From Lophium mytilinum (taxonomy: Eukaryota), in contig MU004203.1 in assembly GCA_010093605.1 (NCBI GenBank), forward strand, positions 326,391-390,390: DNA of 64,000 bases, in the 5' to 3' direction. Below the pieces are notes generated by a model. The model had not been told where the DNA came from. It worked only from the letters and a program-made list of their open reading frames with translations, and made no database searches. Both the position numbers and the translations under genes were made by a program. Shown here in pieces: positions 19,187-37,711 of the stretch; the first letter of the stretch is position 1, and each line of letters starts with the position of its first letter.

Positions 19187-21397
19187 CTACTGTTGCGGGT
19201 AGAACACCTGGCCCTGCGCTGGGACTGGGACTTGGGGATAGTAGTACCCGTCTGGACTGGGCGTCATCATCCCGCCCATACCCGGTACTGCGTAGCTCGC
19301 CGGCGCGTACCCTTCTGCTGGTTGTTGGTACATCTGCGACGGGTCGTAGTAGTACGTCATACCGTTCTGCTCGTACGCCATCATTGCTGGCGGGGGCGCA
19401 GAGGTGGGCGCGGTGGACGTAGGGGGTGGAGGGACGGGCATTACGTAGCCGGCGGCTTGAGGATTGGGGACAAACATAGGCACCATGCCTGGGGCGGCGA
19501 ACTGCGGTTGTGGACCATTGGCGGGCGGTGGGTAATAGAAGCCTGGTTGCATAGGGAACGCCTGCGGCGGGAACCCGGGCTGTTGGAACGGCTGGAAGGC
19601 TGGGGCATGGATAGCTCGTTCTGGAATGTTTGACAGAGGAGTGCCGGTAGATGCCTGACTGGGGTAAGAAAGCTGGCGTGAATGGGGATAGAACGTTGGA
19701 GGTTCGGTAGGCGCGGTAGCCCCGTTGGCCCCGTTCATGTGCGCAGGTACTTGCTGATGGAACGGTTGCTGTTCTACCTGCTGTGGGGCGTGGAACTTGA
19801 TAGATGCAGGCGACTCAATTCCGGCAACGGAAATCGTTTTCTGCGGTCGTGGTTGGTGCATGGGGATTTGACCTTGCCAGTTCTCCCGGAAGTTGGGCTT
19901 CTGCGGTAGGGGATATGTCTGCGGCGGCGGCATGTTGACAACAGGAGTCCCGCCACTTGGAGAAGTGACCGAGTGAGGTCCGGAGGGATGTTGGCCACCG
20001 GGGGGTAGGCGAACAACAGGCCTCTCCACGGGTCCTCCTGCCCTCGACATGACAGACCCAGCTGGAGATACAAGTCCGTCCCTACCCATCTCTCGCGCCA
20101 TAGACGACCTCCGGCTCATCGCCACGCTAGGCGAATATACGCTTCCTCCGTAGGCACTGGTTCGTCGGCTGGAGAAACCACCGTAGCTTCCAAATCCTCC
20201 TCTGCCACGTCCCCGACCAAACCCTTGCTGATTCGGCCGTAGCGCTCGAGGTATGAATATGAATGATCTGTCGATAGTCGGGAAAATATATCGGGGTGGG
20301 TGGTCGGGTAGAGAGATGCGGACAGGTTTGTCGCGACGGAGGGGTGGCCGGTGGTTCGGGAGCCTCGTATGTTGCTTTGCTGGGACGCCCTGGAACACGA
20401 TGGGAGCTTTCATCCCAAGAAGGGACACTCGTACGTTTAAGCTGCCTGTTTGAACGGTGGAAGAGAAGGAGCGGACCGGCGCGGCCTTCGGGGCGGGAAG
20501 TGCGGGTTTGACGAAATGTGCGGGCTGGTGGTGGTTATGCGAGGGTACGTGGGGCGGCACTGCTGTTGGCTGCATGACGGGTTGTGGCCGATGCGGTGGA
20601 GACATCTCATTGACGGTCTGATGGAGATCATGCTGCCAAGGACCATCGGTAGCCTCAGGTGGCATCGACATGCTGGGACAAGGTTAGTACTCCACTCGAC
20701 TTCCAGACGGGGCGTACGGTTCGGACGAAAGCACTTACTTGGCTGGAGAGAATGGACCTCCCACCATTCCCCGTCCCCGACCCCTTCCACGTCCAAACTG
20801 TCCTCTGAAGTTCTGGCCAGCCGCTGATCGTTGATCGTGCATGAAGAAGGCTCCCCGGTTCGGTATGAAGGCCGGATCTGAGTCTCTCTTCTTCTTGTAT
20901 TCGTCGTGCTCCCGCCGCTTGCGCTCCGCAAATGTTTCGAGCCGGTTGGCAGATGCAGAGTCCCCAGCCTGCGGGGTGTCGCCGGAAAGCCTGGTGTCGC
21001 CTCCGCCATCAAAGTCCATGCCCTCATCATCGCCTGCGGCTCCTTCTGATATTTTTAGGCCGTTCATCATAACATCCGTGTCCCGTAGTGCTGTGAAGTT
21101 GGTGTCTGATCGCGCAATCGCCGGGGAGAGACCATCGTCAGGCGGCAGGACATTGAGCGGTTTCACGTCGTTTTTGGCTCCGATGGCATTTGATTTGGCC
21201 TTTGCCGATGTCAGAGAGGGCGCCGTCTCGGCCTCGCTCAGGTCGCTGTCATCCGCATCGCCATCTGCGTCGCTGGCGATGGAAGCCTCGCTCTGTGAAT
21301 CATCGACGAGGTCTGTCGCCACCTCGCCATCCTCCTCTCCCTCCTCGTCCACCCTCCGCCTGCGGGATGTGAGTGGTCGTTTGCGTGTGCCAGGCAT
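19187..21397 (-). CDS. CASC3/Barentsz (Btz) eIF4AIII-binding domain protein (2 exons; intron 20738-20673)
   Basis: Btz-like core ETFAERKRREHDEYKKKRDSDPAFIPNRGAFFMHDQR followed by RGG motifs, and a Pro/Gln-rich C-terminus with HRPPLRRDKPVRISLP. The splice gives an in-frame join. Confidence 0.85.
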
Positions 21398-22136
21398 ATT
21401 AGTGACGTGGGAGGTAGAGAGGGAGCCCTAAAGACGCTGTTCAGAGATGCCTCTATAAGAGAAAGAGAGTATCTGGGGTATAGGCATTAGAAAGGACTGC
21501 GCTACGTAGAGGGGGGGAGAGACAACGCACCAGTTTAGGGTGAGAGGTACGAGTATAGCGCGGTAGGGGAGGTCTGGTCCCTAACACGCGCTGCAAGAAG
21601 TGAAAGGGTGGATGTTGTGGGGGTATAAGAGCGGTAGCTAGAGGTTTGAGAAAATGTGACGCCAGGCTTAAGGCTCCCCAGCAGCCGCTAACCGAAAACT
21701 GTCGCCGCGCCTGGGGAGATCCCCAGACCAACCACACTCCACCAGCACTAACCCCACAAGATATTCACTGATTCCGCCCTGCCTTAACGATTATCTCTCA
21801 AACTGTGGGAGGAGATACGCAAGGGAGAATTAAAATTGGTGCTGGCACTGGAAGACGGTACTTCGCGCAAAGTCACGGGACTACAGCTTCAAGAAGGGCA
21901 GCAAGGGTTAACTAATGAATGTAAAACTTTGTATAGGAAGCTTTGTAAGATTTCATAGTCGCTGTCTACTATCACTTCGTCTCTGCTAAGAGGTGAGGAC
22001 ATGTATCACTTTGGACACCATGCCGTGTGGTAGGTGAACAGAATGCAAGCTCAGGATATCAATCCTCATTACTTAGTACGGATATACTACACTGCATATC
22101 ATATCTACTTTCTTCCAGCCTCGTCCGTTTCTTCTA

Positions 22137-29089: not shown

Positions 29090-30279
29090 GCTAGCAGGTC
29101 GTTTTGTTGTCGAATCTCGTCGTCCAAGATATCGCGGCGCTATGGACCCTCCATTACTTGCGATCACAGCATCGAAGATCGGCATTGTTACGACAACATC
29201 GCCATGCTTCAATGGGCACAAGGCCATCTTGTCTCTACAGCCATGGAGTCTTTTACATACACTTCTCTTCTTCCCAAGACACACTTTTCTGTTGTTATAT
29301 AGGTGGTTCCTACTACGACCCCCTGCTAATGTTTTTTTCTTTCTTTTCTTTCCCCTTCTCTTTTCCAGCATTCTACCCGGCGTCACCTCGTGCACACGGA
29401 GTCAGCACGTTTCATGCATCTGGGCGGTGTTTCCGGATCGGATCAGCGTTATGGCGCGGACTATGGGTAACAATCTACTCTCTTTCTCTGTGGTCTGTGC
29501 AGACTTCATGCACAGCAGACGGATGAATGGATGGACGGGTTCTTTTTGGAGTTTGATTCATCCTCCCCGCGAGTGTGGGCGGGATGGGTAGATACAGGGT
29601 AGCAGCGAAATCGATCCATCTAAACGTTTAAACCTCACTCTGATGACATTGCGATAATATGGGGAAGTGTAAGACAACGGTGAATGTAATATATCTAACA
29701 CGTGATCTTTTGTTCACAGCAAAAGGATCGACCAAAGCCTGATGCGGATTATCACGCAACGAGTTAGCCAGGTAGACAAACGTATGGTACAATGTAGGTA
29801 GCTTTATGGCCCCTCATCCAAAGCAATGGTACGCTAACTAGACTTAGGCTACCGGGTGCCTCACAGGCGCCCTCTTACCAGTCGAGCATTCCACCGGACG
29901 CTCCAGAAGTTCTAGAGCCGCCGTATTCTACTTTGAGCACTAGGTCCACTCCGCATGAGTTTAATAAGACCACTAAAGATCCCCTGGCCATATCTGTGGA
30001 TTTGGGCGTTGTACCACCAGCTGAAGCGTGCATACGCCACAGTTCCAGCCCTTCGCGATAAAGCTGCGATTGGCTTCAGCTGCAGCAACAACACCAAAGA
30101 CTAGCCTCCATGAGCACCGGTATAGCGAAAGCTCAGCCCAGTACCACACTTCACGCGGGCAACCTGTTAACCTTCCCAAGTATGAAAGCCGCAATGTTTC
30201 TTTTCTCACAACGACGTTCTTCCCTTGCAACCCTGTTCTACCACCACCACCCTAGAAGCCAACCCTAAAACACAGCAAA

Positions 30280-31584
30280 ATGAAAGCTCTACAAGAAGAA
30301 TTAATCTCCTTCATGTTCCTACGAGATGAGCACGGCCAGCTCGACGTCATGGCCTGCCTCGCCCTCTGGTTCGGCAAATCCAACACAACCGACATCGCCA
30401 TCAACACCCGCTTCGGTCACCACGTCGCAGCCGCCCTCGCGAGCTCCTACACCTCCTGGACCTCCACCGCACGCGGCTGTCTCGCCCTCATGATCCTCAT
30501 CGACCAATTCCCCCGAAACATCCACCGCCACACCATCTCCTCCTTCGCCGGCGACCTCATAGCCCGCTCCATCGCAACCCTCCCCTTCGACTGGCTCCGC
30601 GAACTCACACCCGAAGAATGCATCTTCGTCCCCTGCCTCATCATGACCCACCAAGAACACCTCGCCTCGCAGCGCGCCGGCGTCGCCTTCTACAACACCC
30701 TAGAACCGCACCTCCCACCCACCCTGCACATCTTCCGCACGATCTTCGAAGAGCATCTACGGATCATAGAGCTCTGCGGCACGTTCCCCCACCGCGACCA
30801 CTACTACAACCGCCCCACGACCCCGCTCGGGAAACAGCTGATGCAGAACCCGAAAATCCGCTTCGACCTGCCCCTGATCGCGGAAAACGGCTGCATGAAA
30901 TTCGGCCACGACCCGCGGAAGCCGTGGCTAGCGACCCAACGCGCTTTCGACGCGCTCGAGCGCATCGAAGCGCTCGCGAACGAGACGGGGCGGCGGGGCA
31001 GCGCGGCGCCCGCGAGCTGGCTGGATGAAGCGGAGGTGGCGGAGTGTCGGGAGACGTTTCGCGCGTTCGATAAGGACGGGAACGGGTTTTTCGATCGCAG
31101 CGAGCTGGGGACTGTGTTGGCGAGTGCGGGGCGGGTTTGTGAGGCGGAGCAGCTGCAGATGGCGATGGATCGGATTAGTGGGGTGGTGGGGACGGCGAGG
31201 GTTACGTTTGAGGAGTTCTCGGCGCTGTTTCGCGCGAAGTTGGATGTGAGTCTTGAGGCGAGGGCGCAGAGGAGGTTTAGTTTGTTTGATAAGCATAAGA
31301 GTGGGGAGATTGATCTTGCGGAGTTGAGGGCGTGTATTCAGAGTGTGGATGATTTGGTCACCGGGGCGGAGGTGGAGGAGATGTTGAGGGCGTGTGATGT
31401 GGATGGGAATGGGCAGGTTTCGCTGGAGGAGTTTGTGGCGATGATGCCGTTGATGGGGGAGGTGCCGAAGGGGAAGGTCGTGGAAGTGGTGGGGGGGGAG
31501 AGTGCGGGGGTGGTGGTTGATGTGGTGGTGGTTCAAGAGCTTGACAGTTATAGGTGGAAGGATGGAGCATACTTGAGCGTTTGA
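30280..31584 (+). CDS. DUF924 domain fused to a calmodulin-like four-EF-hand module (intronless)
   Basis: The N-half has DUF924 motifs (WFGK, LALMILIDQFPRNIHR, MTHQE, H..II...G.FPHR). The C-half has EF loops DKDGNGFFDRSE, a degenerate second loop (..VTFEEF), DKHKSGEIDLAE and DVDGNGQVSLEE. Confidence 0.88.
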   Translation: MKALQEELISFMFLRDEHGQLDVMACLALWFGKSNTTDIAINTRFGHHVAAALASSYTSWTSTARGCLALMILIDQFPRNIHRHTISSFAGDLIARSIATLPFDWLRELTPEECIFVPCLIMTHQEHLASQRAGVAFYNTLEPHLPPTLHIFRTIFEEHLRIIELCGTFPHRDHYYNRPTTPLGKQLMQNPKIRFDLPLIAENGCMKFGHDPRKPWLATQRAFDALERIEALANETGRRGSAAPASWLDEAEVAECRETFRAFDKDGNGFFDRSELGTVLASAGRVCEAEQLQMAMDRISGVVGTARVTFEEFSALFRAKLDVSLEARAQRRFSLFDKHKSGEIDLAELRACIQSVDDLVTGAEVEEMLRACDVDGNGQVSLEEFVAMMPLMGEVPKGKVVEVVGGESAGVVVDVVVVQELDSYRWKDGAYLSV

Positions 31585-32317
31585 AAAGGGTCATGTACAT
31601 ACTTTGGTCACTTTGGCGTTCGGTTGCACCAGTTGTTATGTGGCCGCCATGGACGTTGTGTGCACAAGATAAGATGCAGACGAAAGTGGTAAAACTTATG
31701 AAAAGACACGAGTATAGATTTTCTGTGCAGACATGACTTGTGGAAAATTTTGGTACAGTAAAGCCTCGGTATAGTGTTTTCGGGTTACAGTGATATACTC
31801 TGTAGAGTGATATATCTCGGCTCTGACCGTACAAATTTGTATAAGGAATAGTAATATCCTGCTTACTATGGTATCATAAGCTCCCGCGCCCAAGATCATA
31901 CTAACTATGGAGGATTTTGTATGGGCGGGTAGTCCGTGGCACCTCTAAAACCCCCTTAATCTCGCTGTTTTGGGAGCTATTGGCTTACAATTCACTTACA
32001 CGTGGCTAAAAACACAGTGATACACCCTCGGCGAACGACTCCCATCACTATACCGAGGGTTTACTGTATTCGGGGACCATCAAACTTTGATGAAACGGTG
32101 TTAGGCGTCACTGTCTATCAGCACCGTGTTGACAGTGCACATCAATGGTCGAAGCTTAGAATTAGTTCTAGTGATAATTCATAGGCCGTTTCGTAGACAT
32201 AAGAGAGTGGGTGATGGTCTTTTGACCGAGATGGCCCCTGAACCAGACATCATTCCATCAAAGCAACAAGAAACCAGCATCATATCAAACTCTCAGCACC
32301 CCGATTGACCGAGCTGG

Positions 32318-33328
32318 CTACCATTGCTGATGGTCCCAGTTGGCCCCTAGCAAGCCACGCTCTCCGAACCGAGTCCCTCCAATCTGACGCTGTCCGGTTT
32401 CGTGGACCGAGTTCCTACGGCTGGAAGCCACTGAGGCACGTCGCTCCTGAAGCAACCGCTGGCTACGTCCCGGACCGTCTGGACGCCTGTCTCCCGATGG
32501 CTCCGAGGCATCATCCTCGTCATCAGGCTCATCATACCCCTCGAAGACATAGCCAGAATCGCCATTTCCACCCCGCTGCTGCCGAGATAGCTGCTGTTGA
32601 GGTCCCTGTTGCTGGGATCGCTGCTGTTGAGGTCCTTGTGACTGGGATCGCTGTTGCTGGGACCGCTGCTGCTCCCGCTCTCGCACCATAGCACCAACGT
32701 CTGGACCCCAGAGGTCGCGGCCCTCAAGATGTCCAGAGTGGTGGCCACGCTCGTACCCGTCATCGTAACCCTCGGCTCGGCCCTCAGATCGGCCCTCGGA
32801 TCGGCCTCTCACATATCCCATCTGTTCTCCGCGTCGCAAGTAGCCTTGCGCGTACTGGACGCCCTGACGGCGACCTTGCTGGAATCCCTGCTGCTGGCCG
32901 TATTGCATGCCTTCCTGTCGGCCGTAGTGTGCGCCCTGTTGTCGGCCATACTGTAGGCCTTGCTGCAAGCCTACTTGCCTGCCATACTGGGCACCTTGGT
33001 GGCGGCCGTATTGTACGCCTTGACGCCGACCATATTGCAGGCCCTGCTGGCGGCCATACATCAAGCCTTGTTGTCGTCCATACTGGACCCCCTGGTTGCG
33101 CCCATACTGTAGGCCTTGTTGACGGCCAGCACGAAGAGCACGAGCGACTTCCTCACGATGGCTGGCGTCGTCTCGGTCTGAATCGTCCGAATCCCCGTCC
33201 CCCATCCAATAAGTAATCTCTCCCTCGTCTGAATCCCCATCCTGATCTCTGCTCCTATATCGCATGGATCGAGCACTGCTAGGCCGTCCATTCCGGACCA
33301 TGTGGTCGAAAATTAGAGCGGCCTCCAT
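32318..33328 (-). CDS. Uncharacterised Gly-X3-repeat, Q/R/Y-rich protein, paralog A
   Basis: Intronless ORF. The ATG at 33328 (ACAATGG) aligns with the start of paralog B, and a TATA lies at about 33513-33519. It has 23 + 10 consecutive GXXX units and ends GANWDHQQW*. Confidence 0.85.
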   Translation of the reverse strand: MEAALIFDHMVRNGRPSSARSMRYRSRDQDGDSDEGEITYWMGDGDSDDSDRDDASHREEVARALRAGRQQGLQYGRNQGVQYGRQQGLMYGRQQGLQYGRRQGVQYGRHQGAQYGRQVGLQQGLQYGRQQGAHYGRQEGMQYGQQQGFQQGRRQGVQYAQGYLRRGEQMGYVRGRSEGRSEGRAEGYDDGYERGHHSGHLEGRDLWGPDVGAMVREREQQRSQQQRSQSQGPQQQRSQQQGPQQQLSRQQRGGNGDSGYVFEGYDEPDDEDDASEPSGDRRPDGPGRSQRLLQERRASVASSRRNSVHETGQRQIGGTRFGERGLLGANWDHQQW

Positions 33329-33540
33329 TGTGTATACTGGGTGAAGTAAACGGAGTATCAAAGAGGTGGTTGTGAAGCTTTAGAAGCTGAAGAGAAGAGT
33401 ATGCGCTTGAGAAGATGCGGCTGTGGTGTGGAAGTGTCGAAGAGGTTGTTGTGGTGTGGTTGTATGGGAAACGTTGTTGTGGTTTGCAAAAAGCAGCGTG
33501 AGCAGCAGGTCCTTTTATATGCGTCCTGGATACATCAAAG

Positions 33541-33860
33541 ATTCACTGGTCTTAGTGCCGGTTCCCTCGAAACTGGCGCCCCTGGAGGTTTCCTCGAGAG
33601 TTGCCGGTGAGTAACGAAATTCACTGGTCTCAGTGCCGGTTCCCTCGAAACTGGCGCCCCTGGAGGTTTCCTTGAGAGTTGCCGGTAAGTAACGAAATTC
33701 ACTGGTTTCAGTGCCGGCTCCCTCGAAGCTGGCGCGCCTGGAGGCTTCCCCGAAAGTGGCCCGTAAGTAATTATATTCACTGGTTTCAGTGCCGGCTCCC
33801 TCGAAGCTGGCGCGCCTGGAGGCTTCCCCGAAAGTGGCCCGTAAGTAATGACATTCACTG
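33541..33860. repeat. 78-bp tandem repeat, 4 copies plus a partial copy
   Basis: Units start ATTCACTG at 33541, 33619, 33697, 33775 and 33853. Copies 1/2 and copies 3/4 form near-identical pairs. Confidence 0.95.
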
Positions 33861-34478
33861 ATTTGGTGGACACTAGAAACTTAGCTTCAGTGGTGCTCTG
33901 CATCATCAAGTCAAGCCAGACTACCCCAGCGAGACAAATAATTAGCGTCCAGTGTAATGTTCAGCAAGAATAAAAGGGTATGGCATGTATGCCGGATCCT
34001 GAACTATTTGATTATGGCTCCTTGGTCGGATACGCACGAAGGCAATGTCATATGACAAATATAAGAAAATTGGGCCAGTCGGGTAATATGAATGATAGTA
34101 GCTGACTAAGAACGACGAGAAGAAGAGGATTTATACTTGAAGAGTAGACATCACGGCCCCAATAGCGTTCTGTTCTGGTGAAGTCGCCCTGAAAAGTCTA
34201 GAATGGGGTGTTGGAGAATTACTCATTCAGAGGACCGAAATAGAAGGAACTAATCTAAAAGGTTTGAAACCCTCAGGCAGACCAATACTAAGCTAGCTGA
34301 GCTAGATAGCCACTTGATTAGGGTACAGCCCTATGCCGGAGCTATGTTATTAATAGCCCATGGCAGGCCAAAGAAAGCAACCAGAATCTGATTTCGGAAA
34401 TTCGTAGCGAGCCATGAACTCAAGACTACCTAAGAAGACAAAAGTCCATTCCCATCATCGCCGCGACTCCTCGAGGTC

Positions 34479-35567
34479 CTACCACTGCTGATGGTCCCAA
34501 TTGGGCCCTAGCATCCCGCGCTGTCCCAGTCGAGGTCCACCAAGTTGGCGTTGCCCACCTCCGAACCCCTGGCTAGCGTGTCCACCTCCGTAGCCCTGTT
34601 GTGATCGAGGCCGCTCAGCCACGGACATAGATTGACGACGGGCGACCGGCCGATCAGAGCCAGCGCTCATCGATGCCCGACGGTTTCGCAGGAGACGCTG
34701 ATCGCGTCCAGGTCCATCTAAACGCATCTGTCCCATGGCAGCTGAGAGCGGCTCGTCATCGTCTGGCTCCTCGTATCCCTGGAAAACGTACCCGTGGTCA
34801 ACATATCCGCCTCCGTGAACAGACTGGCGACGCTGGTGGACTGGTCGGACTTGTCGAGACGGCTGCTCTCGCTGCTGCGCCTGCTGCCGCTGAACAGCAT
34901 CAATATCTGGACCCCAATCCTCCCGACCCTGCTTATACCCGGCCCGCCGCGCTTCCTTGATCCTGTCATCTATAGTCGGAAGACCTGGCTGTCTCGGACC
35001 ATTTGGACCCCAAAGATCACGGCCCTCGCGGTGACCGGCGTGGTGTCCATCCCGGTAGCCTGCCGAACGGCCTTGAGCGAAGCCTCGATGCTGACCGTTC
35101 TGATACGCGTTCTGAGCGTGTCCAATTCCCTGTCGCCTGCCGTACTCAGCCCCTTGTTGCCGGCCATACTGGAGCCCTTGCTGTCGGCCCAACTGAACTC
35201 CTCGATTGTGGCCAAGCTGAACACCCTGGTTGCGTCCGAACTGAACGCCCTGATGCCGACCAATGTTCAGAGCCTGTGTCACTTCTCGACGGTGTCGCTC
35301 TTCGTCGTGTCCTCCGAAATAGTTGTTTTGGCGCAGATTTTGGTGATGGTGCCGATGTTGATGTTGATGGCGGTGGAAGCTCGGATGGAGATGATTGTCC
35401 CTAGGGGCGCTCCGCTGGTTGGTTGCTCCATCACTGTCTTTGAGCCAATATGTCACTTCCCCTTCCTGACCCATGCCGTCCTGGTCCCTGCTCCTGTACC
35501 GCATTGTCCGCTCACCCCGCGGTCGTCCGTTGCGGGCCATGTCCTGGTATATGAGAGCTGGTTCCAT
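34479..35567 (-). CDS. Uncharacterised Gly-X3-repeat protein, paralog B
   Basis: Intronless 362-aa ORF. It shares MEPALI..M.RNGRP, MRYRSRDQDG..EGEVTYW, GRDLWGP, GYVF.GY.EPDD, DGPGR.QRLL and LG.NWDHQQW* with paralog A. Confidence 0.87.
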   Translation of the reverse strand: MEPALIYQDMARNGRPRGERTMRYRSRDQDGMGQEGEVTYWLKDSDGATNQRSAPRDNHLHPSFHRHQHQHRHHHQNLRQNNYFGGHDEERHRREVTQALNIGRHQGVQFGRNQGVQLGHNRGVQLGRQQGLQYGRQQGAEYGRRQGIGHAQNAYQNGQHRGFAQGRSAGYRDGHHAGHREGRDLWGPNGPRQPGLPTIDDRIKEARRAGYKQGREDWGPDIDAVQRQQAQQREQPSRQVRPVHQRRQSVHGGGYVDHGYVFQGYEEPDDDEPLSAAMGQMRLDGPGRDQRLLRNRRASMSAGSDRPVARRQSMSVAERPRSQQGYGGGHASQGFGGGQRQLGGPRLGQRGMLGPNWDHQQW

Positions 35568-36639
35568 GGTGTATATACAAAGGATATGAACTAAGTATAT
35601 GCAAGAGCTGCGACTTGTAGTGGAATGAGTAGCTGTAGTGTGCTTGAGGCGGAGACAATGAGTATTTTGTAAGCGAAGAACGGGGTTGGGGGCTTCTCGG
35701 TCTGCTGAGCAGTTGTGGTGTGTTCTGTCTGATGAGGTTGTTGTGGTGTGTGAAAATCGGTGTGCATCAGAGGGACCATTTTATACTTGCTAGAAGGCCA
35801 GAAAAGAAATTGAATTGATCCCGCCGCCTCTGGCCCAGCGCTTCTGGAGCCTTCTAGTTGAGGTGCCCGTACGGAGCCGCATTGCAGGCTAGCGAACCCG
35901 GCATGCAAATGCTACGTCCAAATAGTACGAAGTCTATTCACCCGGCGGTGCCAGGCCGGACAGCGACATATCAAAAATGCTGCTCTTGAGGTTCCAGTAA
36001 GCATCATAACATAGACATGCGAGGGTATATAGCGAATCTTTTTGGCCGGCATATCTCCCATACACAAGTGACATTTCGGCAGGCCGCAGTCAGTTCATTG
36101 GTAGGCGTGTAGTCGTCGTATATAGCCTGCCGTCTCCACGGGGCCGAGTAAAGCTATGCATTGTAGCACACATGAGCTGAGGTGACCTCCGAGAATCATG
36201 CCTTAGCAGAGCACCCAAACTCAAGCCGTGTTTTCAATTCTGCGGATGTTCGTGAAGGCATTGCTGCAGCTGCGTTGTAGACATCCAATGGCCCATAGGT
36301 AGTCATAGGGCCAGCATCATATGGCAGTTTCTCTCAGAGTAAAGAAGGTACAGAACAGATCATGTGTGACCGATTAAAACTTGCTGAACGTCGATAGGGA
36401 TAGTAGGGTGCGCGCTTTCTTGTAGACCTTCGTAGAGATGATTGCTCATGGCGATACAAACAAAGTCCAAGAGTTTGCCGGTAGACAATCGCGAAAGAAG
36501 CAAGACTGAAGAGAACATTTTTTAGAACTTGCTAAATTTTTTCCAATGACGTGTCTTCGAGAAAGCCGTCCACCCGGTGTAAATCTTTGCCAATAAGATG
36601 TAATGGAGAGATTTGTCCGAGGATGAAATTAAAGTTTCA

Positions 36640-37300
36640 AACCCGAAAATGAAGACTCTCAGAGGGTCGTACTCTGTTGGGGAGATCAGCAAGTCGATGA
36701 TGTTTTCAAGCCCTTCTGGTTCTGCAATGTCGAACGGAGTCGCTGTATTTCATTGACAGACCTAAAATCCACACCATGCCGATTAACATCTTTAGCACTC
36801 CAACTTACCCTCTATTGGTAGCAAAATGAAGGGCTATGATTCCTCCAGAACCACGTCGAGTCAGATCAGTGCCGTTGTCGATGAGTAGCTGTAGGACGTC
36901 CGGATGGCCGGACGTCTCTGCCTCGTGTGCGAGGCTCAAATAAGTCTAGAGGCCGCGTTGACGTCGGCGGCAGAATCAACTCAAAACTTTGCAGCATTTA
37001 TGGATCCATAATGAGCAGCAAAATGTAGCGCCAAAGGGCCTTTCCTATTCCTCTGATTGACGTCAGCGACATGAGCGACATGAGCAATCAGGACTTTCTT
37101 GTCTTCTAACTTCTTGGACTCAATGGAATAGACGATCGGAGGAAGCCCGTCCTCGTCCTTTACACTGTCAATAATCCCCAGGTCAATAAGAGTGTAGTAT
37201 AATCCATCGATCTACAGGTCTTGGATCGTCGGCATTTGCGCAATCCGCTTAGCATCTATCGACTCTGGGGTCCTCTTCAGGACGTCACGACCTAGAAGGC
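36640..37300 (-). pseudogene. Degraded ankyrin-repeat gene
   Basis: Manual translation gives ..KDEDGLPPIVYSIE..VLIAH..ADVNQRNRKGPLALHFAAHYGSINAAKF*VDSAADVNA / LAHEAETSGHPDVLQLLIDNGTDLTRRGSGGIIALHFATNRG*VGVLKMLI / HGVDFRSVNE / ATPFDIAEPEGLENIIDLLI. That is about 5 ankyrin repeats with several stops and frameshifts. Boundaries are approximate. Confidence 0.8.
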
Positions 37301-37711
37301 ACGAGGTCCGCCTTTTGGCAGGTAAGCGTTCAATCCATCGTGATGAGATCAGACATGTGGGCGATGTGAGAGCTCGGTATGCAGGAAGAGAAAATGTATT
37401 GTATTGGTGTTCCTGGGAGGAAGCTAGCTAGGTCTGTGAGACGGAAAGACCTCCACGGAAGCTGCTGAGTAATCGGCTACACAACTGATGGGCTATTTTG
37501 ATTGAAAATACATTCAAGTTCTTTTCTCCAGTCATCCGTCACCGTCGCCGAATTCGCTATCTCGAGAGGCGGTTCTCCATCGAAACGCATATCTCTCTGT
37601 GACTAACTCGATGGATCCATCATTACGATCCCTAGCTCAACTGAGATGAAGCTGTCTGGGCTAGCCAGCTTTATATAGTGGCTTCGCTGTAACACTCCTG
37701 CTACCAACCAT

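Follow-up and report, generated by a model that had tools for sequence, protein, structure and literature searches.

Two adjacent paralogous genes of Lophium mytilinum encoding putative Gly-X3 helix-pairing proteins with an invariant C-terminal tryptophan

A stretch of 64,000 nucleotides from Lophium mytilinum (assembly GCA_010093605.1, contig MU004203.1, positions 326,391 to 390,390; hereafter the window) carries two paralogues, A and B, which are almost certainly real coding genes. We lean towards regarding their products as lineage-restricted, soluble scaffold proteins, in which a Gly-X3 helix, predicted from structural models, would pair with another such helix and Trp-centred motifs would serve for docking. 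The initial annotation had described two intact same-strand frames approximately 1.15 kb apart, and this is confirmed: both lie on the minus strand with a gap of 1150 bp. Likewise, all the conserved blocks that it listed were recovered in a MAFFT alignment of A and B (alignment A1), and its counts of Gly-X3 units (23 + 10 in A, 12 + 7 in B) are exact. The features of the locus, in positions of the window, are:

32318..33328, minus strand: paralogue A, complete ORF with ATG start, 336 codons plus TAG
33206..33328, minus strand: A, N-terminal conserved block, residues 1-41, ending TYW; predicted by AlphaFold2 as a short helix and a beta-hairpin
32852..33127, minus strand: A, first Gly-X3 block, 23 units, Gln-rich octad GRQQGLQY, residues 68-159
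32702..32830, minus strand: A, second Gly-X3 block (charged, His-containing), 10 units plus cap GRDLWGP, residues 167-209; Pfam Yae1_N match at 171-203
32432..32554, minus strand: A, block GYVF.GY.EPDD ... DGPGR.QRLL..RRAS, residues 259-299; RRxS at 296 and 304
32321..32380, minus strand: A, conserved Gly/Arg tail, residues 317-336, ending NWDHQQW-COOH
33329..34478, no strand: spacer between A and B, 1150 bp, with a 78-bp tandem repeat (33541-33860)
34479..35567, minus strand: paralogue B, complete ORF with ATG start, 362 codons plus TAG; contained end-to-end in RNA-like contig 13 of run X3
35445..35567, minus strand: B, N-terminal conserved block, residues 1-41
35307..35411, minus strand: His-rich insertion found only in B, in the variable linker, residues 53-87
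35118..35261, minus strand: B, first Gly-X3 block, 12 units, residues 103-150
35004..35096, minus strand: B, second Gly-X3 block, 7 units plus cap GRDLWGP, residues 158-188
34908-34949, minus strand: B, degenerate second cap GREDWGP, residues 214-220
34671..34793, minus strand: B, block GYVF.GY.EPDD ... RRAS, residues 259-299
34482..34541, minus strand: B, conserved Gly/Arg tail, residues 343-362, ending NWDHQQW-COOH
34228..36674, minus strand (inferred from GT..AG introns just upstream): ungapped contig of RNA-like run X3, 2447 nt, no differences

The blocks common to A and B in alignment A1 are the N-terminal 41 residues, HR.EV..AL, GRDLWGP, GYVF.GY.EPDD, DGPGR.QRLL..RRAS and the tail GG.R.G.RG.LG.NWDHQQW, the last seven residues of which (NWDHQQW) are identical in both proteins and followed by the stop. 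At the site of the His-rich insertion of B, the linker of A is acidic (Asp/Ser). The degenerate cap GREDWGP of B was absent from the initial annotation.

Uninterrupted Gly-X3 runs extend over 23 units (G68-G156) and 10 units (G167-G203) in A, and over 12 (G103-G147) and 7 (G158-G182) in B; the longest run obtained in 20000 shuffles per protein was 9 units for A and 7 for B. Nine octads of A share 68% of their residues but only 33% of their third positions, and TRF at period 24 finds only 63% matches in the DNA. To judge from these sequence comparisons, the repeat is held at the protein level and not by recent DNA slippage. Composition is similar in the two proteins (Gly 57, Gln 56, Arg 48 and Tyr 18 among the 336 residues of A), Cys is lacking in both, and Lys is absent from A and found three times in B. 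The highest 19-residue Kyte-Doolittle means, -0.09 (A) and -0.47 (B), reveal no hydrophobic segment and are consistent with the lack of a signal peptide noted initially.

AlphaFold2 predicts the same topology for A and B, namely a helix, a hairpin and one long helix over the Gly-X3 repeat (residues 52-131 in A, 87-186 in B). Mean pLDDT is low (49.1 and 47.7), with 199 of 336 residues in A and 223 of 362 in B below 50, and the two models are not independent, because each was built from a two-sequence alignment of this same pair. ESM Atlas models are poor (pLDDT 0.55 and 0.51); ESM Atlas gave no usable feature matches, and all structure neighbours fell under the bar. A complex prediction for A 1-215 with B 1-225, run without controls, scored 0.02 against a mark of 0.34 and speaks neither for nor against binding.

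The core of each protein would be an alpha-helix of exceptional length in which every fourth residue is Gly, flanked by mostly disordered arms. Most likely, this helix would pack on a second Gly-X3 helix via a continuous glycine face, by analogy with Yae1-Lto1 and with the dimers of FliH, which is described as an elongated dimer with GxxxG repeats proposed to mediate helix-helix dimerization (PMC2674601). The partner could be either another copy of the same protein or its sister, so that an elongated dimeric scaffold would result, and the invariant Trp-centred blocks of the arms (TYW, DLWGP and NWDHQQW-COOH) would act, together with the RRxS sites, as docking and regulatory motifs. RRxS, which we take to be a kinase consensus, occurs twice in A and three times in B.

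The same composition lends itself to another, rather unlikely reading, in which A and B are self-assembling low-complexity proteins whose Arg, Gly, Gln and Tyr 'stickers' drive the formation of condensates or fibrils, the ends tuning this process and the RRxS sites switching it. Richness in Gly, Gln, Arg and Tyr, the majority of residues below pLDDT 50, the poor ESM Atlas models and the presence of RRxS sites are all consistent with such behaviour. However, the strict period of four, with no Gly gap over 23 units and every octad selected, argues for a defined helical geometry, and self-assembly leaves the strong constraint on the extreme C-terminus unexplained. Moreover, an Arg in each octad is not what classical Q/N prion domains typically show.

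The homologue search called for by the initial annotation retrieved relatives of the repeat only, and no orthologue in the collections searched. A profile of A and B, searched against 1.84 billion representative proteins, gave 439 matches at E <= 0.001, with the best non-self matches from E 7.8e-18 upward. All 149 non-self matches listed (of the 439) are confined to profile positions 25-260, i.e. to the repeat, and one of these 149 ends in Trp. BLASTP of the N- and C-terminal parts against the 149 listed matches detected none at E < 0.01, and the positive control, A against B, yielded 6.7e-20 and 1.1e-26. Outside the repeat, among the 1.84 billion representatives and for the matches listed, A and B are, as far as sequence comparison can tell, each other's only relatives. 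In a word-index search, whole B retrieved only itself among 3897 candidates; with residues 1-68 of A, none of 55 candidates reached E <= 10, B being missed despite a shared 10-residue word, and with residues 150-215 of A none of 107 candidates did, so that these two results carry no weight as evidence of absence. A metagenome scan with alignment A1 produced 184 pattern matches, none of which was confirmed by tblastn, and a degenerate DNA pattern for the MRYRSRDQDG block had no match. Among PDB sequences, the profile retrieved nothing and three other queries retrieved low-complexity chance matches only. When the N- and C-terminal parts were scanned separately with Pfam at E <= 10, just two faint rows at chance level were returned. 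Among the collections searched, the A/B pair was seen in one assembly only.

At the level of the repeat, several family models give matches. Pfam Yae1_N (PF09811) matches A with 32.6 bits, above the gathering score of 27.5, and B with 19.2 bits, below it. The proposed link to Yae1/Lto1-type repeats thus stands for the repeat itself, with B under the cutoff, and the label 'unassigned' has to be corrected because Yae1_N matches the Gly-X3 repeat; it still applies to the parts outside it, for which no relatives were retrieved among the proteins searched. Applied to 10 other Gly-X3 proteins, Yae1_N matches eight, six of them above cutoff, beside GAF_2 or PDDEXK_2. Since the model also matches unrelated bacterial Gly-X3 proteins, it marks a type of repeat and not Yae1/Lto1 orthology. 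The best non-self matches of A and B are proteins of bacteria that carry the Yae1_N repeat, combined with GAF_2, with PDDEXK_2 or with no further domain, and are similar over the repeat only; their surrounding domains are unrelated, and their charged units (EGRxxGhxxG) differ from the Gln/Tyr octads of A and B. Four NCBIfam FliH models also match, in both A and B, the first block, which is rich in Gln and Arg (best E = 5.5e-12), again at repeat level only: the best score is approximately 45 bits (45.4 versus a cutoff of 192, the cutoffs of these models being 180-293), and A and B lack FliH's C-terminal domain. Furthermore, the repeats of FliH/YscL are reported to average 2-10 units (PMC2674601), versus 23 in A.

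The closest resemblance to a described eukaryotic system concerns Lto1, also named ORAOV1/LTO1, whose hallmarks according to Paul et al. (PMC4523923) are a deca-GX3 motif and a C-terminal Trp, and in which glycine mutants lose Yae1 binding. Lto1 and Yae1 are presented there as conserved from yeast to man and, as stated in 2015, as the only deca-GX3 proteins of eukaryotes. For Lto1 and the Yae1 domain, an AlphaFold coiled coil formed by the glycine faces has been described (PMC12810181). Like Lto1, A and B are soluble, have at least 10 uninterrupted Gly-X3 units, a repeat matching Yae1_N and an invariant C-terminal Trp, its conservation being seen between the two paralogues only; a run of at least 10 consecutive units (40 residues) is found twice in A (23 and 10) and once in B (12). 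Unlike Lto1, which has 162 amino acids in yeast (PMC12810181) versus 336 in A and 362 in B, they contain two Gly-X3 blocks totalling 33 (A) and 19 (B) units, their own N-terminal, middle and tail blocks are without relatives, and they are orphans whereas Lto1 is pan-eukaryotic. Yae1 (YAE1D1; its domain is fused to Tpt1 in fission yeasts) shares with A and B the tandem Gly-X3 units, the predicted helix and the glycines on one pairing face (PMC12810181). However, the passages of PMC4523923 that describe the two proteins name a C-terminal Trp for Lto1 and mention none for Yae1, whereas A and B both end in Trp, and the putative partners A and B are paralogues, not members of two different families as are Yae1 and Lto1.

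For these reasons, we judge it improbable that A and B are diverged, expanded co-orthologues of Lto1 acting in Rli1 maturation. Although both proteins combine a Gly-X3 block of at least 10 units with a C-terminal Trp, and A exceeds the Yae1_N cutoff, yeast Lto1 is half their size, and they have two blocks and show no relatives outside the repeat; an essential, conserved adaptor is moreover not expected to appear as an orphan, in a pair present in a single assembly.

The homology of A and B (BLASTP E = 8e-67; 156 of 401 columns identical) runs exactly from the ATG to the stop in each gene. The 297 aligned codons give a pS of 0.749 and a pN of 0.326; the N- and C-terminal blocks give 0.831 and 0.241, and the final 25 codons 0.692 and 0.104. 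At the 297 third positions, 103 nucleotides are the same, 86 differ by transitions and 108 by transversions, and GC is 0.60 in each gene; RIP was rejected as the cause of divergence, given this GC and the lack of a transition excess. Synonymous sites are saturated, the N- and C-terminal blocks are conserved and NWDHQQW is identical, and both genes have therefore been maintained as proteins. The purifying selection suggested initially is thus supported, with pN approximately one-third of pS and frames open. In our reading, A and B originated by an old tandem duplication; no similarity was found between the flanks of A and those of B, and the window holds no third copy.

Run X3 is guessed to be RNA and is not on record as such. 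Its ungapped contig covers all of B and reaches 251 nt further downstream and 1.1 kb further upstream, and minus-strand splice joints beside it are absent from the DNA run. The description of the genes as intronless is thereby upheld for B only. X3 has no cover over 31903-34038, the stretch holding A, which is not evidence for a silent A.

Against this background, it is very improbable that the two frames are non-functional, whether as duplicates in decay, as ORFs arising by chance across a DNA repeat or as a piece of a mobile element. Such an origin could account for their orphan status in all collections searched, for the low-complexity DNA repeats and for debris nearby, but not for 336- and 362-codon frames that stay open at saturated pS with pN at a third of it, for homology bounded by start and stop codons, for a GC of 0.60 with no transition bias, for the inclusion of B in an RNA-like contig or for the lack of a third copy in the window. 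Weaker still, an identity as secreted or cell-wall glycine-rich structural proteins, compatible with the high Gly content and a faint Pfam GRP match in the C-terminal part of B (E = 0.037; 15.1 bits versus a cutoff of 30), is hardly credible for proteins with no hydrophobic N-terminus or window, no Cys and a charged N-terminal block.

The neighbourhood contains ankyrin remnants, tandem repeats and a multi-copy element. No Fe-S assembly function was found among the neighbouring genes. Amyloid signalling with an adjacent NLR gene was rejected, as no NACHT or NB-ARC was detected in 17 neighbouring ORFs scanned, and so was an Argonaute-hook (GW/WG) reading, WG dipeptides numbering just one and two.

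In the scaffold reading that we favour, the invariant extreme C-terminus would be a C-terminal recognition peptide, for which the Cia1-Cia2 pocket of the cytosolic Fe-S assembly (CIA) targeting complex is the foremost candidate receptor. The C-terminal Trp of Lto1 mediates its binding to the targeting complex (PMC4523923), and the consensus of C-terminal CIA signals is given as [LIM]-[DES]-[WF]-COOH (PMC10623007). According to a preprint (10.64898/2026.04.06.716496), binding is dominated by the terminal aromatic side chain and the free carboxylate, the acidic residue at -1 is dispensable in Trp-ended peptides, and the signal of Leu1 is Gln-Asp-Trp, probed as HQDW. The docking signal proposed in the initial annotation is partly sustained by these data: the Trp is invariant and agrees with the Trp/carboxylate rule, but Q-Q-W does not fit the consensus at -2 and -1, the last position alone agreeing, and CIA binding by A and B is putative. 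As Leu1 QDW itself differs from the consensus at -2, and as -1 is reported to be dispensable, this mismatch does not exclude function. The HQQW of A and B has the same -3, -2 and terminal Trp, with a free carboxylate, as the Leu1 signal, but its -1 residue is Gln instead of Asp, and A and B have no Cys to hold a cluster. The D-[IVLM]-E-[DEN] pentapeptide is absent from both proteins, and sequence signatures alone give more than 2,400 human matches, many plainly non-Fe-S (Ren et al., PMC12910081). Docking of HQQW-COOH to the CIA complex is put forward as a tentative and rather unlikely candidate; an invariant stretch of seven terminal residues exceeds what a tripeptide signal requires, and the tail may serve another receptor.

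If docking takes place, A and B would be adaptors or decoys and not clients, because neither contains Cys. We regard with considerable doubt the extended proposal that they form a second, lineage-specific Gly-X3 adaptor or decoy system of cytosolic Fe-S assembly. Their long helices would then pair mutually or with Yae1/Lto1, and both HQQW-COOH tails would sit in the Cia1-Cia2 pocket, either bringing a client to the targeting complex or, under certain conditions, titrating this complex, and RRxS phosphorylation might be the switch.

Were this so, deca-GX3 proteins in eukaryotes would go beyond Yae1 and Lto1, and a docking tail would make A and B the first lineage-specific addition to the CIA adaptor layer, as well as a natural test of the newly proposed signal 'grammar' (Trp and carboxylate dominant, -1 free). 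If the tail does not dock, the pair would still represent a clean orphan family with protein-level selection on every repeat unit. With Gly-X3 runs much longer than those of Yae1/Lto1 and an invariant C-terminal Trp as in Lto1, A and B would offer structural studies a soluble glycine-zipper helix of unusual length.

Two complete open reading frames on the same strand, separated by a spacer of 1150 bp, form a pair of paralogous Gly-X3 (GX3) repeat genes, hereafter A and B (coordinates are window positions):

32318–33328, minus strand: paralogue A, complete open reading frame of 336 aa, stop TAG, standard code
34479–35567, minus strand: paralogue B, complete open reading frame of 362 aa, stop TAG, standard code

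Their paralogy is clear (BLASTP, E = 8e-67); the homology extends from initiator Met to stop codon in each gene, and no in-frame ATG lies upstream of the initiator Met within the open frame of A or B. All the conserved blocks named in the initial annotation were found in both proteins in their MAFFT alignment, and the Gly-X3 units number 23 + 10 in A and 12 + 7 in B, the longest run in shuffled proteins being 9 and 7, respectively (20000 shuffles each). Frames, blocks and repeat counts are thus confirmed by open reading frame analysis, BLASTP, MAFFT and repeat counting. The second block is followed by a cap motif, GRDLWGP, of which B displays a degenerate second version (GREDWGP) without counterpart in A. 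A His-rich tract, HLHPSFHRHQHQHRHHHQ..., is also unique to B (window 35307–35411, residues 53–87), A having an acidic Asp/Ser-rich linker at this place; B contains 23 His in total, and this insert may be metal-binding or pH-sensing. A third copy was not detected within the window by tblastn.

The substitution pattern bears out the earlier suggestion of purifying selection on both genes. Indeed, Nei–Gojobori counting gave pS 0.749 and pN 0.326 over the whole alignment (297 codons), 0.831 and 0.241 over the N- and C-terminal blocks, and 0.692 and 0.104 over the last 25 codons; two long open frames with a replacement rate about one-third of the synonymous one therefore indicate selection on the protein. 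Among the 297 third codon positions, 103 are identical, 86 differ by transitions and 108 by transversions, and both genes have a GC content of 0.60; the duplication is therefore old, and RIP-type transitions have not obscured it. The flanks of A and those of B share no similarity. Within the repeat, identity among nine octads of A is 68% for residues but 33% for third positions, and a period of 24 reaches only 63% matches (TRF); each unit is thus maintained by selection and not by recent slippage.

Three sequencing runs contain the stretch: two DNA runs, from which the assembly may derive, and a third run, picked because it contains this stretch, labelled with another organism and taken as RNA by guess only. 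This third run behaves like RNA. Indeed, its cover over 29500–37500 is discontinuous, reaching 22 of 30 bins at depths of 1.7–137, one DNA run being flat at approximately 159, and it contains two joints with CT..AC ends that are absent from the DNA run: 37052/37111 (58 nt skipped, shorter side 244 nt) and 36673/36809 (135 nt skipped, shorter side only 29 nt). These joints are minus-strand GT..AG introns. One contig of 2447 nt (34228–36674) matches with 0 differences and 0 gaps, spanning all of B plus 251 nt past the stop and 1.1 kb before the ATG; B is therefore present, unspliced, in the RNA-like sample, such contigs being uninformative on strand and transcript ends. The run has no cover over A, to which we give no evidential weight.

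Both introns fall in ankyrin-repeat remnants (36645–37409, minus strand; Pfam Ank_4 and Ank_2, none scoring above cutoff), whose RNA contigs continue unbroken into B; as the ankyrin frames meet stops after splicing, this region looks like a decayed gene or a non-coding leader. Between the paralogues, 213 bp upstream of the ATG of A, lies an intergenic tandem repeat (33541–33860; 78 bp, 4.1 copies, 92% matches) over which DNA-run depth is approximately doubled, and whose 26-codon period generates a spurious 123-aa open reading frame (33535–33906, minus strand). The DNA run is also deeper (585 versus 159) at approximately 31750–31890 and at 37365–37411, with loose ends in both runs; these short stretches probably belong to a multi-copy element dispersed in the genome, and no repeats of them occur within the window. 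The downstream neighbour of A is a 434-aa open reading frame (30280–31584, plus strand) in which an N-terminal DUF924 domain (E = 1.3e-30) is fused to EF-hand pairs. Farther away, a CASC3/Barentsz (Btz) domain is split across two open reading frames (19190–21427, minus strand), presumably exons of one gene.

The two proteins show an extreme preference for Arg over Lys (48 versus 0 in A, 52 versus 3 in B); a protein without Lys offers no Lys side chain for ubiquitination or acetylation. Each of the Trp residues, 4 in A and 5 in B, falls inside a conserved block, and RRxS sites, putative targets of basophilic kinases, number 2 in A and 3 in B. The highest 19-residue hydropathy means are low (−0.09 and −0.47), hence neither protein has a signal-peptide-like or membrane segment. 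From the two-sequence alignment, AlphaFold2 returned models of low mean pLDDT (49.1 and 47.7) with a common order of elements: a short helix (3–13), a β-hairpin covering MRYRSRDQDG...TYW, which is the best-modelled part (10-residue block means of approximately 75 in A and 63–64 in B), and one long GX3 helix predicted with low confidence at 52–131 in A and 87–186 in B, the remainder being predicted as unstructured.

The sole Pfam family detected was Yae1_N (PF09811), with 32.6 bits in A (residues 171–203) and 19.2 in B against a cutoff of 27.5; matches in NCBIfam were limited to FliH equivalog models, which fall on the Gln-rich first block and stay well short of their cutoffs (45.4 versus 192). 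A profile of A and B searched against 1.84 billion representatives retrieved 439 proteins at E ≤ 0.001, of which 15 reached E ≤ 1e-10 and B alone reached E ≤ 1e-30. In all 149 other matches listed (of 439), the best stretch fell within profile positions 25–260, approximately the repeat, and the N- and C-terminal parts of A and B matched none of these 149 at E < 0.01 (BLASTP; A-versus-B control, 6.7e-20 and 1.1e-26). The top profile match is a Ser/Asp-rich Gly repeat. Among ten matches inspected, eight carried EGRxxGhxxG-type units of bacterial look, one had a signal-peptide-like N-terminus, and none resembled A or B beyond the repeat. Yae1_N was found in eight of ten matches scanned with Pfam (above cutoff in six), beside GAF_2 or PDDEXK_2 domains; since other GX3 proteins match it next to unrelated domains, Yae1_N is a model of the repeat type. 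Judged from sequence, the match thus tells the kind of helix and not a Yae1 or Lto1 identity: the parallel with Yae1–Lto1 drawn initially stands for the repeat type, A being above cutoff. Two metagenome scans gave no match, and the 90% cluster of B holds one member from one contig. Within the searched collections, the family is thus an orphan. Given the age of the duplication, the family is expected in related species as well, which probably means that the lineage has been sampled poorly. A and B are soluble GX3, or 'Yae1_N-type', proteins with a predicted helix, and the two genes make up an orphan family whose terminal modules are its own.

We slightly favour a helix-pairing scaffold, by analogy with published roles of GX3 helices. 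In AlphaFold models reported for the Yae1 domain and Lto1, two helices meet along a continuous glycine face (PMC12810181), and FliH, with 2–10 GX3-type units, is described as an elongated dimer (PMC2674601). Likewise, the first blocks (92 residues in A, 48 in B) and the second blocks would form a helix-pairing rod of unusual length, and the Trp-centred invariant blocks in disordered arms would serve as docking motifs.

Self-assembly of an Arg/Gly/Gln/Tyr-rich low-complexity protein agrees with both the composition and the poor structure models, but leaves the unbroken period of four and the constrained C-terminus unexplained, and we regard it as doubtful. That A and B are true, diverged Lto1 co-orthologues is very unlikely, given their orphan status and a size double that of Lto1. 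Non-functional open reading frames are highly improbable, being contradicted by the substitution pattern and by the RNA-like contig over B, and a secreted glycine-rich wall protein, the least credible option, is contradicted by the hydropathy profile.

Of the Trp-centred blocks, the extreme C-terminus is the most constrained; it reads HQQW-COOH, a single substitution away from HQDW, a probe derived from Leu1. According to a 2026 preprint, peptides ending in Trp owe their binding energy mostly to the aromatic side chain and free carboxylate, do not require the acidic residue at −1 and function with Gln at −2, although this is 1.3 kcal/mol weaker than Leu (10.64898/2026.04.06.716496). Cys is absent from A and from B, so these proteins cannot be Fe–S clients and would instead be adaptors or decoys. 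Against docking to the cytosolic Fe–S assembly (CIA) complex, the tail fits the C-terminal consensus [LIM]-[DES]-[WF], as given in PMC10623007, at one of three positions; motif searches alone are described as over-calling (PMC12910081); the internal pentapeptide signal is absent from A and B; and seven invariant terminal residues suggest an interface larger than a tripeptide needs. Moreover, no Fe–S assembly gene occurs among the 17 neighbouring open reading frames scanned, which include Btz, Sec1, a CCCH finger, DUF924 + EF-hands, ankyrin remnants, an FAD oxidoreductase, an F-box protein, a GMC oxidoreductase and a GTPase. The putative docking is rather unlikely. The pair is of interest as an extreme predicted glycine-zipper helix, and mainly as a candidate lineage-specific extension, so far predicted, of the Fe–S adaptor layer.
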